A stretch of 64,000 bases of DNA. Origin: Saccostrea echinata (taxonomy: Eukaryota). The stretch covers positions 13,702,001 to 13,766,000 of the forward strand of contig NW_026889805.1 of assembly GCF_033153115.1 (NCBI RefSeq). The letters are read 5' to 3'. This document shows, piece by piece, positions 295 to 34,296 of the stretch (positions are counted from its first letter, which is position 1; the number at the start of each line of letters is the position of its first letter). The notes below the pieces were generated by a model. It worked only from the letters and a program-made list of their open reading frames with translations, had not been told where the DNA came from and did no database searches. A program made the translations under genes and the position numbers.

Positions 295-313
295 TTTTTC
301 TACTTTCGGTTTA
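295..313 (-). promoter_or_regulatory. IRF/ISRE-like motif upstream of HSPA12 gene 1
   Basis: Minus strand TAAACCGAAAGTAGAAAAA; 18/19 identical to 34278-34296 upstream of gene 4. Confidence 0.5.
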
Positions 314-1514
314 TTAACTGAACATGTACACAACCCAGTGGCGGATCCAAAATTTGAGGGAAAAAAATGATAGGGTCACGTTTTCCTGGCACGTAAAATA
401 TCAAAATCGTGAAAAAAGCCCGGAAAACGTAAGATATTTCGGACTACCCTTTTGTAAAATCAGAAAATTAGGTTGCTTCTATAAAAGCTCGCATCAGCAA
501 ACTTACTGATGTTGAAGGGGCAGTGTTAAAATACTGAAACAATATGATCCAGGCACCAAGTATTATCGTTTTTTAACGGGAAGGGGGGGGGGGCAGCCAG
601 AAAAAAAATGACACCTTACCTGAACAAATTTTGAGAAGCAAAAAAAGAAAATAAAAAGGAAAATTGTCTAAACTCCAAAATCCTATTTCGTAGAAGGGGG
701 TGGGGGTGGGGTGGGGGTTAACAAATATACCTTACCAAATTACCATGATTTACCTAAGCTACAACAAAAAAAAGGGGGCAGCCTTTCAAAGAACATTTTC
801 AATAGTAAAAGGTTATGTTTGGGAAAGGGGGGGGGTATGTTTCAACAATTTTTATAAATATACATTAAATTACCATGATTTAACTCTGTTACAACAAAAT
901 TTAAAAGTATGGGGGGGGGGGCTTTCAATGAAAATTTTCAATAGTAAAAGGTTATGTTTGAAAAAAAAAAGTCGGGGGCAGACCCCCCCCCCCCCTTTAT
1001 ATTACGTGCCTGTAATATGCCAAAAGCGTACGATCAAGCCGGACATGCATTTTAAAAAAGGCTCTGTGAAAATATTGGCACAATCAAAGCTAATTACTAA
1101 TCAAAGTAGTTTAATACTTAATTATTGGATTTGGTGTTTTATGTTATACATGCAAGTAAAATAAATGGGAACGGGTTTGCATTACATCTGCAGAGACTAG
1201 GATGCAATAAATTCTCCTAAAAATCATACAACATGCATCGACATCCTTTAAAGAACATATTAACTTCATTGAAATTATAATGTTAAAGGGGGGGGGGGGA
1301 GATTCTCTAGTTGTTGACTCTAGAGTAGGACCCCCCTCTTCCCATGGAAAGCTTAAGTAAAGCAGGGCTCCGGACCCCAAGGAAAATCCTATCATTATTT
1401 CCATTATTGCTTGCAATAATTAATGTGTAATAAAGAACTAAATTGAATTACCTATATGTATATATCTCTCTTTATAAGTGAATTCTTGTGCGCATCAATT
1501 CTATTGTTGATAAA

Positions 1515-1672
1515 CAGTCAAAACTCGCTATCTCGAACTCAATGTAATCGAAAAAAAACTTCGAGATATCCAGGATAAAATACTTAAAGAATAAGGGGTT
1601 GGGACTTACAATTCACTTCGACATATCCATGGTATCCGAGATATAAGTGTTCGAGATACCGAAGTTCAATTG
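1515..1672. mobile_element. pogo/Tigger-like MITE
   Basis: Imperfect TIRs CAGTCAAAACTCGCTATCTCGAA ... TTCGAGATACCGAAGTTCAATTG; TA on the right flank. Confidence 0.55.
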
Positions 1673-2713
1673 TAGTTAATTTATTTGAATACAGCAACAA
1701 TCCATTTTTGAGTGCATCGATTTAGCAAAATTGATGATACAGTTGAATGGAAGATATCAATAATTATTCGAAGAAATTTTTAAATTGAATTCTCAAGTTT
1801 TTCAAATGAATTGATGATCTCTTGATATAATTATTTAAAAGATATCTTTAATTATTTAACATAATTTTATTAATTTGGCGCTCCATATATATTTAAAGCT
1901 CGTGTAAAAACGGACTCGTCAGGAGAAACTTTTCACTTCGCGTATTTATGACTTTTTTCGCGCTATAACGCCTTCTGGGAAAAAAGTTAAATATTACGCC
2001 TTTCATTTTTTTTCCTCCATAGATTGAAACTAATAGGATTTCCTATTCCTCCGATCTTTTGCAGGTACATTTGAAATTTCTGTATATAACTGAACATTAT
2101 ATAAATTTTTTGATCGTCCTTTCTTAAGGGTGTAACATTCCAGACAGATGCAGAGAAATTTTTGCTGATGAGACTTTCCCTCTAATGTACTGTAGAAAGG
2201 AAGAACACTTCTAGTAAGTAACAGGACATTTAATATAACAACTAATGCAGTATAAAATACAAGAAAAATATCTAACACTAAAAAAAGTTACTAATTTAAC
2301 AGAAATTACTTGTATATAGTTTGTGTGATTAGAACACAATAGCATTAGAAACAAATTACACTCGTATATTTTATTGCTGTAAAAAAGGAAAAGCTCAGCT
2401 TCTGATCCAAACAATAATTACAGTATTTGCAGGCTAAATTGGCTAAACACAGTAGTTCTTTTTTGCACTGATATAAGAATTCCTTTTATTTTATAAATTG
2501 AAGACAAAGAAATTTACTAACTCCCTCCTCCCGTTAGGATTAAAGGTTTAATATATATAAATAAAAGTACATATACTTTACTAGTATTGATTTCAAGAAA
2601 GTTACAAATGCATCCCCCCAAGTTAAAATTTAATATACATGAATCTAATTTCTATTTATTGTTTTCCAAAAAGAGATATAGTATAAATAATGTTTGATGA
2701 TCTATATATATTA

Positions 2714-3344
2714 CAGGGTGTTTCAACAAACACGTCCCGACTCTAACATGTCTATATTTTTGCACAATAAAACAATATTTACAAAATTATAACTGTATTT
2801 AATAGTACATTTTCCGGCAATATAATTGTGCTATAAACAATATAAAATAACATCATTAATTTTTTTCCATTGAAGTTTTGATTACATCTTCAAAAGTCAG
2901 GTTGTCAGGGTTTTTTTTACCCCCAAATCTATGGATATTTTTAACTAAACTGTGCAAACAGAAAAAATCTCCAAAATTACTAGTGCATAAGATTTTGAAA
3001 AAAGAAGTGCTCATATAAGAACCATATTTCCAGGAAACAGACTTTTTAAATGATGTAAAAGTTTAAGCAATACAGAACTTCAGAGACAAAATGAGGTTGC
3101 TGAATGAAAACATTGCAGCCATTTCAAAGACATAAAAAATGAAGATAAATTGAAAACTGTTGCTGATTTCCAATCCTAAAAAATGCCTGTCTCAAAAATA
3201 AATGATGCTGCATTACTTCAACTTTCATATTGTTAAAATTGTTTGATTATGTATTTTTCATTTTTGCTAAAATTTCCTTACATTAATACTCTCTAACTTT
3301 GTATTGAAACTGCAAAGTTGGGACATGTTTGCTGAAACGCCCTG
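2714..3344. mobile_element. Tc1/mariner-type MITE just downstream of gene 2 stop codon
   Basis: TA-CAGGGTGTTTCAACAAACACGTCCCGACT ... AGTTGGGACATGTTTGCTGAAACGCCCTG-TA; about 30-bp TIRs and TA TSD. Confidence 0.75.
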
Positions 3345-33600: not shown

Positions 33601-33875
33601 TAAAATCAACTTCATTGCTAATTTTATAGATTAGAATAGGGCAAAAAAAATTCTGATTTTAATGGAGAGAGCTTATAGATGAGTGCATTTTTTCGTTTGA
33701 AGTTTTTAAAAGATTGAATAAAGAGATAATTTTGGCTTAAATGTTCCATATACTCGTGATTAAATGTCTAAGAAATAACTGCAGTTACCCCAGCTGAAAT
33801 CTTACTAACAATACACACTTGTATGTAAATGTTTAAGAAAATTTCATATTCATATTTTCAACCATGTTTACTTAC

Positions 33876-34072
33876 CAAGAATGACGATCCGCTCCTCTAT
33901 TTTTCTCTGAAAGAAGGAGAAGAAGCAGATCGTCAACCTTGGCTAGCGATTTCAGATTCATATCCAATCAGAAAAAAATCTATTACTCTATAAATATTAA
34001 GTTAACTTACGTTACACGTTCCTTATCGAGATTAATCCATCACAAATTTAAAATGAAATGAACTTTCGGTTT
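33876..34072 (-). promoter_or_regulatory. Putative promoter and two 5'-UTR exons of gene 3
   Basis: On -: AAACCGAAAGT (34072-34062); an exon ending 34011 with a GTAAGT donor; a 104-nt intron ending CTTCTTCTCCTTCTTTCAG; a 31-nt exon 33906-33876 followed by GTAAGT. Confidence 0.55.
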
Positions 34073-34277
34073 GAAAAGATTGTTGTTTTCAATGAATCTC
34101 CTTGAAACTAAGTAATCCTCTGTTAGCAATATTTGAACAGAAATTTTCATTTATAAATTTGACTACTTTCAAAGACAACACTATAAACTTGTACATGCAC
34201 TTAAAGGATGGCATTACTCCAATTAAAGGTCTAACGTACATGTATACCAATAGATAAATACATTTAAAGAAGAAATA

Positions 34278-34296
34278 TAAAACGAAAGTAGAAAAA
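34278..34296 (+). promoter_or_regulatory. IRF/ISRE-like motif upstream of gene 4
   Basis: TAAAACGAAAGTAGAAAAA, 25 nt before the ATG; shared with gene 1. Confidence 0.5.

Follow-up and report, generated by a model that had tools for sequence, protein, structure and literature searches.

An IRF-type element upstream of four HSPA12 paralogues in Saccostrea echinata as a candidate antiviral promoter signal

The IRF-type core AAANCGAAAGT recurs at candidate promoters of four neighbouring HSPA12 (atypical Hsp70) genes in the window, the 64,000-nt stretch of Saccostrea echinata DNA analysed here (34% GC), and on balance it is probably a conserved upstream element of these paralogues, bound by IRF and conferring inducibility via dsRNA/RLR-MAVS-IRF rather than HSF1. 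Since an IRF-type motif lies upstream of the genes and a full heat-shock element is missing, the cluster is predicted to be under an antiviral pathway. An oyster IRF would bind the AAANCGAAAGT core beside the predicted transcription start, and the dsRNA/RLR-MAVS-IRF route, not HSF1, would make the paralogues inducible at a basal or moderate level.

As judged from their sequences, the cluster products belong to HSPA12: they match Pfam HSP70 at 37-44 bits, indicating a divergent Hsp70 ATPase domain, their best named protein matches are HSPA12A/B-like, and the ATPase motifs are intact in P0001, P0010, P0025 and P0148. The best 60 of 113 PDB matches include no solved HSPA12 structure, and a PADLOC comparison of the four cluster proteins with defence proteins gave nothing convincing (one marginal match, E 0.009). 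A quick tree groups the paralogues as ((1,2),(3,4)) and places Ostrea and Magallana proteins within the gene 1 lineage, so the split between genes 1 and 4 is older than these genera. In M. gigas, LOC105324206, LOC105344611 and LOC105331478 are among the co-orthologues of gene 1, and for co-orthologues in Magallana several RefSeq accessions stand for one 578-aa protein, the pattern expected from alternative leaders. The interval between genes 3 and 4 (16.2-34.2 kb) is a repeat-rich tandem duplication. A partner gene has been noted beside HSPA12-like genes of fungi and protists; as candidates for one in this interval, 74 stop-to-stop frames of at least 55 aa were set aside, appearing non-coding by eye.

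Table 1. Features of the HSPA12 cluster (window positions)
Feature	Position	Strand	Remarks
Gene 1 (HSPA12-like), first coding exon	1..237	-	continues past window edge; tblastn P0010 98.7%/79 aa
Gene 2	3407..6466	-	
Gene 3, coding region	11418..16016	-	four exons
Gene 4, coding region	34322..43108	+	578 aa in four exons (P0148); faces gene 3 head-to-head
Proximal 19-mer of gene 1, TAAACCGAAAGTAGAAAAA	295-313	-	57 nt upstream of ATG (237)
Proximal 19-mer of gene 4, TAAAACGAAAGTAGAAAAA	34278-34296	+	25 nt upstream of ATG (34322); overlaps TATAAAA
Candidate 5'-UTR acceptor of gene 1	271..290	-	34 nt before ATG; aligns with gene 2 acceptor
Strong acceptor of gene 2	6506..6525	-	40 nt before ATG
GTACATGT of gene 1	322..329	-	aligned flanks
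GTACATGT of gene 4	34236..34243	+	aligned flanks
Repeat/MITE-like insertions (probable type)	336..1012		directly upstream of gene 1 element; terminal-repeat-like ends 336, 386, 1002
GAAATCGAAAGT, canonical GAAANNGAAA site	8138-8149	-	candidate gene 2 promoter (distal), with a CpG-rich patch above it
AAACCGAAAGT, IRF-type core	34062-34072	-	candidate gene 3 promoter (distal; first intron would be 18 kb), or else a gene 4 upstream site in reverse orientation
Companion element AAATTTGTGATGGATT, copy 1	8063..8078	-	just after donor-like sites 8085/8081
Companion element AAATTTGTGATGGATT, copy 2	34034..34049	-	donor-like GTAAGT at 34010
GAAACTGAAAAC	6603-6614	+	antisense in putative intron 1 of gene 2
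2.5-kb element, 13-bp terminal inverted repeats	22170..24685		between (AT)n tracts; carries IRF-type site 23113-23124 (-)
Single-copy 79-nt hairpin	33870..33948	-	31 pairs including 7 G-U; pre-miRNA-like geometry; 115-190 nt downstream of 34062 site

Each of the five motifs of the original prediction was found where it had been placed, including the 19-mer expected 25-60 nt above the ATGs of genes 1 and 4 (measured, 57 and 25 nt). The two 19-mers match at 18/19 positions; they have TAAA in their first half and two GAAA spaced by 3 nt, so that the gene 1 copy reads as the IRF-type core AANNGAAA with a second GAAA after 3 nt. When the two 100-nt flanks were dinucleotide-shuffled 3000 times, the best 19-nt match was 16 and 0/3000 reached 17; random non-coding window pairs gave 3/4000 matches of at least 18, all of them 19/19 and probably repeat copies. 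The likeness of the 19-mers exceeds chance, despite the saturation of synonymous sites (fourfold-degenerate positions are 24-45% identical between paralogues in 9/9 exon pairs). The octamer GTACATGT is likewise common to the upstream flanks of genes 1, 2 and 4, yet it has 22 copies across the window.

The motifs at 8138 and 34062, proposed to mark where genes 2 and 3 begin, are present, but their role as starts is putative, with the ATGs 1.7 kb and 18 kb away; the start-site cues at the candidate promoters (acceptors, donors and the CpG patch) are all read from sequence. Gene 4, on the opposite strand, is close as well: the 34062 site lies only 250 nt upstream of it. An element common to both distal sites matches at 18/19 positions (0/2000 shuffles reach 17) and recurs nowhere else in the window at up to two mismatches, and a donor-like GT stands at +62/+61 of the two sites (background 7% per site). 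The strong acceptor of gene 2 points to a non-coding exon further upstream; in gene 3 an acceptor lies 18 nt before the ATG. Taken together, the aligned flanks described below, the shared 16-mer and the donor-like GT about 62 nt downstream suggest two ancestral promoters kept alternately. The ancestral gene would have had a distal promoter, with an IRF site, a short non-coding exon with its donor about 62 nt on and the 16-nt companion element, and a proximal promoter at the end of intron 1, with GTACATGT plus the 19-mer. The distal promoter would survive in genes 2 and 3 and the proximal promoter in genes 1 and 4; an inversion would have set genes 3 and 4 head-to-head, after which gene 4 lost its acceptor.

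Downstream of the 34062 site, the hairpin at 33870-33948 folds at -41.5 kcal/mol (z -5.6; 0/200 shuffles as stable), with -40.8 against -30.0 on the other strand, and is long, stable and a single hairpin on one strand, as pre-miRNAs are. Its Rfam scores are 20-27 bits against gathering thresholds of 70-100, and the supplements of PMC7488030 contain none of the 8-mers of its arms. A much broader proposal, which we hold only tentatively and think unlikely as a whole, is that the bivalve HSPA12 expansion, for which the usual interpretation is adaptation to heat and intertidal stress, consists largely of IRF-wired antiviral ATPases, every paralogue retaining one or the other of two IRF-driven promoters of the ancestor, and that the gene 3/4 distal promoter also drives this microRNA-precursor-shaped hairpin RNA.

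All four candidate promoter sites (295, 8138, 34062 and 34278) contain AANNGAAA, given as the IRF-binding consensus in a review of IRF1 (PMC7819612). The identification of the motifs with that consensus holds for the core, but a canonical GAAANNGAAA is present at 8138 alone, the two-GAAA ISRE with 2-nt spacing thus occurring at 1/4 sites, and the 34062 site has one GAAA. Another reading, unlikely but carrying some weight, is a functional element that works in the promoter or leader in an orientation-dependent way and is recognised by a different factor, of core-promoter or Blimp-1/PRDM1 type, setting tissue expression instead of virus induction: every promoter copy is sense-oriented, as expected of a core-promoter or RNA element no less than of an enhancer, most copies are half-site-like, the gene 4 copy overlaps TATAAAA, a second, companion 16-mer is present, and induction of the HSPA12 family in C. 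gigas is weak. Sites of Blimp-1/PRDM1-type proteins overlap those of IRFs. Against such a factor, the invariant part of the element is the exact IRF core, the double site at 8138 is perfect, sites of this kind respond to oyster IRFs, CgIRF2 and CgIRF8 activating ISRE reporters (PMC5557890), and HSPA12 family members rise with dsRNA and virus.

Orientation was also compared at distant HSPA12 loci on metagenome contigs (at least 14 in the 29/64 parts scanned; 41-61% identity, none orthologous), with all 14 counted, including L014, where the match is not the first exon, and L012 and L013, which have another intron pattern. The motif AANYGAAAST occurs upstream of these loci in 5-6 sense and 0 antisense copies (shuffle p <=0.04 for windows of at least 600 nt, 0.23 for 300 nt; sense-only test, p 0.03-0.28 by window). 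Five of the loci are interrelated, five further sense copies lie downstream, only 4/14 loci have a copy within 1.2 kb, one control motif scored 3/0, and the exact 11-mer of the cluster is in none of the 14.

The flanks outside the motifs had been called unalignable, which was wrong: over the 150 nt that precede the ATG, genes 1, 2 and 4 can be aligned with one another, and the alignments are colinear (p 0.004-0.03 across three scorings, with one 0.000). That this entire flank is weakly alignable would suit an improbable explanation, namely that the motifs remain from duplication, or from short tracts of gene conversion, in flanking DNA that is AT-rich and decays slowly, or else work in the RNA (as leader or in the branch-point zone), and that no transcription factor is involved. 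Such an origin would also fit the promoter likeness, which pairs gene 1 with 4 and gene 2 with 3 and thereby conflicts with the protein tree, the location of the gene 1 19-mer 23-41 nt above the candidate acceptor, where it may be intronic, and the loss of the CGAAA core at the homologous position of gene 2, just upstream of its acceptor. However, synonymous sites are saturated and so are the coding introns, which do not align (4/4 pairs, p 0.12-0.98), and the same core is found at distal sites that are non-homologous to the proximal ones. Around the four motif sites, the flanks are no more stably folded than their shuffled versions (z -0.5 to 0.9). Furthermore, no usable splice acceptor lies between the gene 4 19-mer and its ATG, and because the 19-mer has been kept there all the same, it is not a splicing signal in gene 4.

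The core AAANCGAAAGT, a pattern defined after the sites had been seen, has 6 copies in the window against 0.26 expected (0.4-0.7 by Markov models; 0/100 shuffles reach 6). Four are at candidate promoters, and two had escaped the original prediction, one in a transposon (23113-23124, minus strand) and one in an intron of a fasciclin gene (50442-50453, minus strand). As an 11-mer, it is sense-oriented upstream of an HSPA12 ATG in 5/6 copies, and its presence within 100 nt of two genes has P ~1e-4 for 6 random matches and ~1e-3 for 19 looser ones. The generic GAAANNGAAA is not enriched (12 in the window, mean 8.0, expectations 8-11; 13/100 shuffles reach 12), so the 6603 motif, although present as placed, is indistinguishable from background. 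Enrichment or conservation over the AT-rich background was obtained, post hoc, for the 19-mer and the 11-mer, but not for the generic pattern, and the signal at the distant loci is weak. As a gene 3 promoter the 23113 site was rejected, because it lies inside the terminal-inverted-repeat insertion with no donor-like site within 400 nt; the insertion is missing from the duplicated copy of its region, and exaptation of the site may have occurred. Chance, i.e., A-rich words chosen afterwards in a 34% GC window, accounts for the 6603 site and agrees with the background frequency of the generic ISRE and the 2/6 core copies in unrelated places, but is very improbable given the shuffle and position tests of the 19-mer and 16-mer, the former already being unlikely by chance.

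A heat-shock element consists of three alternating nGAAn units. As predicted, no heat-shock array is present: the five regions around the four starts contain no perfect three-unit element and none of gap or step type, and their one-mismatch matches (3 in ~2.9 kb against ~1.5 expected) have the background density of the window. The original contrast with a heat-shock locus is borne out to the extent that a full element is missing, and is an argument from motif absence. In M. gigas, many HSP70-family genes move up or down under heat (PMC11268181).

Within the bivalve Hsp70 family, HSPA12 is the branch that is both largest and least understood, and to our knowledge native IRF target sites have barely been mapped in molluscs. 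Neither IRF elements as such nor the reporter-assay activity of oyster IRFs on them is new; if the sites described here are IRF-bound, they would supply a defined oyster IRF element and place part of the HSPA12 family among immune instead of heat-shock genes, which would bear on the reading of oyster transcriptomes and herpesvirus-resistance data. A search with subscription journals and bioRxiv supplements outside its scope found no paper linking HSPA12 promoters to IRF sites, and the text of a Nematostella immune-cell paper has no motif analysis.

Expression data for C. gigas (PMC7064767, Table S5A) concern the family and are not tied to genes 1-4. Its poly(I:C)-sustained set includes 57 HSPA12-like rows, labelled 'V/B, other', of which 51/57 are up after poly(I:C) and 40/57 after OsHV-1 in controls; the main text gave 0 matches for 'heat shock' or 'HSP'. 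The rise is mostly below twofold (log2FC of at least 1 in 19/57 and of at least 2 in 4/57, two of these four disagreeing with their own expression columns), weaker than the 6- to 40-fold of IRF2, viperin and most IFI44 rows seen, and many HSPA12-like rows also drift up in seawater controls. The 1,587 genes of the table were preselected, 82% of the DEGs in it being up, and the 'sustained' share is 42/57 (74%) for HSPA12 against 69% for the whole table. The proposed interferon-like, dsRNA/virus-inducible module, whose effector role is hypothetical, is partly consistent with the IRF-type element at paralogous promoters, the missing full heat-shock element, the action of oyster IRFs on ISREs and this family-level rise, but sits less well with its mostly sub-twofold size. 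Oysters have no recognisable interferon according to PMC5557890.

The closest known counterpart of the element is the vertebrate IRF-E/ISRE of interferon-stimulated genes (PMC7819612), whose AANNGAAA core is likewise found at all four cluster sites and whose two-GAAA form is matched at 8138; the cluster motif is similarly repeated, in a tandem gene family. Unlike the vertebrate ISRE, 3/4 cluster sites are not canonical double sites, and they are known from sequence. The ISRE of shrimp Vago4, which LvIRF binds (PMC4602278), is also from an invertebrate and was predicted in the 5'-UTR region near the start, but Vago4 is a secreted peptide for which binding and reporter activity were demonstrated, whereas the predicted targets in the cluster are ATPases. 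Canonical HSP70 promoters regulated by HSF1, such as C. gigas HSP70-2387 (PMC6688261, in the text of which HSPA12 is unnamed), share with the cluster an Hsp70-type ATPase domain in their products, but have the heat-shock element, in contrast to the cluster starts, which have no perfect three-unit element. In M. gigas, 89/113 HSP70-family genes are HSPA12 (PMC11268181), an expansion read there as stress adaptation, with no promoter analysis (0 matches for 'promoter'); it is the same family as the cluster, likewise arranged in tandem arrays, and holds the co-orthologues of gene 1.

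The motifs of the original prediction, five in number, were all recovered at their claimed positions. The 19-mers ahead of genes 1 and 4, two of the four HSPA12-like paralogues, lie 57 nt and 25 nt from the respective ATG and are identical at 18 of 19 positions, while the best 19-mer match between 100-nt flanks in 3000 dinucleotide shuffles was 16, and 18 or more matches were seen in 3 of 4000 random non-coding pairs. Their common core AAANCGAAAGT, a pattern set after the fact, occurs six times in the window against 0.26 copies in shuffles and 0.4–0.7 by Markov models. Five of the six are sense copies 5' of an HSPA12 ATG (312, 8148, 23123 and 34072 on the minus strand, 34279 on the plus strand), and the remaining copy sits in a fasciclin intron. 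For a sense copy to fall within 100 nt in two of the genes, the probability is 1.2e-4 with 6 random hits and 1.2e-3 with 19. The predicted enrichment over background thus stands for the 19-mer and AAANCGAAAGT, which exceed the shuffles, but not for the generic GAAANNGAAA, where 13 of 100 shuffles reach the 12 copies observed. Since GAAANNGAAA is at background level, the 6603 site in the inferred intron 1 of gene 2, put forward as IRF/ISRE-like, carries no weight. We consider the motif genuine and, in two paralogues at least, inherited from a common ancestor and maintained by selection.

Positions of the motifs, hairpin and fasciclin genes
Feature	Position	Strand	Remark
19-mer, gene 1	295–313	-	proximal
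19-mer, gene 4	34278–34296	+	proximal
8138 site	8138–8149	-	candidate distal promoter, gene 2
34062 site	34062–34072	-	candidate for gene 3
6603 site	6603–6614	+	
23113 site	23113–23124	-	
AAATTTGTGATGGATT	8063–8078	-	adjoins 8138 site
AAATTTGTGATGGATT	34034–34049	-	adjoins 34062 site
Single-copy hairpin	33870–33948	-	115–190 nt 3' of 34062 site, same strand
Fasciclin gene	46.6–52.0 kb	+	Pfam-confirmed
Fasciclin gene	about 53–55.7 kb	-	TIFAP/TLLAP-type motifs
Fasciclin gene	56.9–59 kb	+	TIFAP/TLLAP-type motifs

The flanking non-coding DNA had been described as otherwise unalignable, which is incorrect: under three scoring schemes, the 150 nt that precede the ATG give colinear alignments among genes 1, 2 and 4 (p = 0.007–0.03 for genes 1/2 and about 0.015 for 2/4, with 1/4 aligning too), and the aligned flanks have GTACATGT in common. 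No alignment above chance was obtained for flank pairs involving gene 3 (p = 0.08–0.62) or for four pairs of coding introns (p = 0.12–0.98). At the position homologous to the 19-mer, the CGAAA core is gone from gene 2. An acceptor 40 nt 5' of the gene 2 ATG aligns with a candidate acceptor 34 nt 5' of that of gene 1, but none is present at the corresponding place in the gene 4 flank. In gene 3, an acceptor precedes the ATG by 18 nt. The inferred gene 2 leader (8082–8137 and 6467–6506, minus strand) would contain short upstream reading frames of 8 and 10 codons ahead of the main ATG.

The 8138 and 34062 sites share a second element, AAATTTGTGATGGATT (16/16, 18/19), which is found nowhere else in the window with up to two mismatches, and none of 2000 shuffles reached 17. 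A donor-like GT follows both sites at 61–62 nt (background 7% per site), with AAATTTGTGATGGATT located after the donor at one and before it at the other. The 23113 site was rejected as an ancestral HSPA12 element because it lies in a 2.5-kb non-coding element (22170–24685; 13-bp terminal inverted repeats, between (AT)n tracts) that the duplicate of the same region lacks. This element, 7 kb 5' of gene 3, combines a good IRF-type site with CCAAT boxes, and is possibly a transposon-borne enhancer.

The products of genes 1–4 have intact ATPase motifs and score 37–44 bits against Pfam HSP70. A quick maximum-likelihood tree built from 40 rows places them in a single oyster clade, ((1,2),(3,4)), with Ostrea and Magallana proteins on the gene 1 branch. 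Identity at fourfold-degenerate sites is near saturation, 24–45% in all nine exon pairs. The M. gigas co-orthologues of gene 1 include LOC105324206, LOC105344611 and LOC105331478. Among its Magallana relatives, one 578-aa protein appears under several RefSeq accessions, which fits alternative leaders but does not prove them.

The simplest account, we infer, is an ancestral HSPA12 gene with two promoters: a distal one composed of an IRF-type site, a short non-coding exon and the 16-nt companion, and a proximal one at the end of intron 1 composed of GTACATGT and the 19-mer. Genes 2 and 3, which need an upstream exon, would have retained the distal module, and genes 1 and 4 the proximal promoter; gene 4, inverted beside the distal module of gene 3, would have lost its acceptor. 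Such alternate retention would explain why promoter likeness (1 with 4, 2 with 3) crosses the protein tree. Alternatively, the 34062 site could drive transcription of a hairpin RNA of its own. The nearby hairpin (-41.5 kcal/mol, z -5.6, 31 pairs including 7 G-U) has microRNA-precursor-like geometry and folds 11 kcal/mol more weakly on the opposite strand. Its end falls on a donor-like GTAAGT, an Rfam search gave no real match, and in a window-wide scan it was outranked by a perfect palindrome, a pair of (AT)n tracts and a stretch within the transposon. The 34062 site could also belong to gene 4, as its second site in reversed orientation.

No partner gene was found among 74 stop-to-stop reading frames (≥55 aa) inspected by eye between genes 3 and 4, where the non-coding DNA shows a diverged tandem duplication (about 18600–27900 and 27900–33500; blocks 70–96% identical, nested repeats). 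The last intron of gene 4 contains long inverted repeat arms (35300–36600 and 38800–39900; complementarity reaching 97%; repeats of 21 nt inside the arms), probably a foldback-type transposon. Towards its right end the window holds a cluster of fasciclin (FAS1) domain genes (46600–59200), followed by a further imperfect long hairpin (59276–59365, minus strand) and a perfect palindrome with 38-bp arms (62221–62320).

As predicted, a clear nGAAnnTTCn array is absent: the five regions around the starts contain no perfect, gap- or step-type heat-shock element, and three one-mismatch matches against about 1.5 expected. The HSP70 family that includes HSPA12 is not heat-blind, since 31–47 M. gigas members go up and 29–45 down per time point under heat (PMC11268181).

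IRFs recognise AANNGAAA, and an ISRE has at least two GAAA (PMC7819612). The claimed IRF consensus is borne out for the core, present at all four candidate promoter sites, but the canonical double site occurs only at 8138. As an outside check, we scanned 14 distantly related HSPA12 loci listed in a search of metagenome contigs. In this set, five members of which are related to each other, AANYGAAAST occurs within 1.2 kb upstream in five sense and no antisense copies (0.70 expected) at four loci. The upstream enrichment has p ≤0.04 for windows of at least 600 nt and 0.23 for 300 nt; the sense-only test against the rest of these loci gave p = 0.03–0.28, and among the nine control patterns there was one with a 3 to 0 score. 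The exact 11-mer AAANCGAAAGT is absent from all 14 loci. One locus has IRF-type sites in tandem 1.1 kb ahead of its first exon (L006:743–759), and in another a double-GAAA site precedes two strong donor-like sites (L001:242–330). These counts weakly favour an IRF-type element, and IRF binding appears the likeliest reading of the candidate element, held with slightly better than even confidence. No paper tying HSPA12 promoters to IRF sites was found in the literature within reach, which excluded most subscription journals and bioRxiv supplements. The candidate element has a testable bearing on the purpose of the large bivalve HSPA12 family.

For the Pacific oyster, Table S5A of PMC7064767, which lists 1,587 preselected genes under CGI identifiers not matched to the gene 1 co-orthologues, holds 57 rows annotated heat shock 70 kDa 12A/B. 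If the columns are read according to the table's head row and section 8 of the paper, 51 are up, one down and five flat after poly(I:C), and in controls 40 are up at one day of OsHV-1. A log2FC of 1 is attained by only 19, and one of 2 by four, two of which contradict their own expression columns. The rows are labelled 'V/B, other', undiscussed by the authors in the main text, and 74% are 'sustained', compared with 69% of the table. Among comparison genes in the same source, IRF2 (CGI_10021170) reaches a log2FC of 4.8 and viperin one of 3.4; of the 14 IFI44 rows listed, out of 26, 11 are at 2 or above. Poly(I:C) induces IRF2 and IRF8 in oyster, and both factors switch on ISRE reporters when tested in human cells (PMC5557890); in shrimp, IRF binds to an ISRE located in the 5'-UTR region of Vago4 (PMC4602278).
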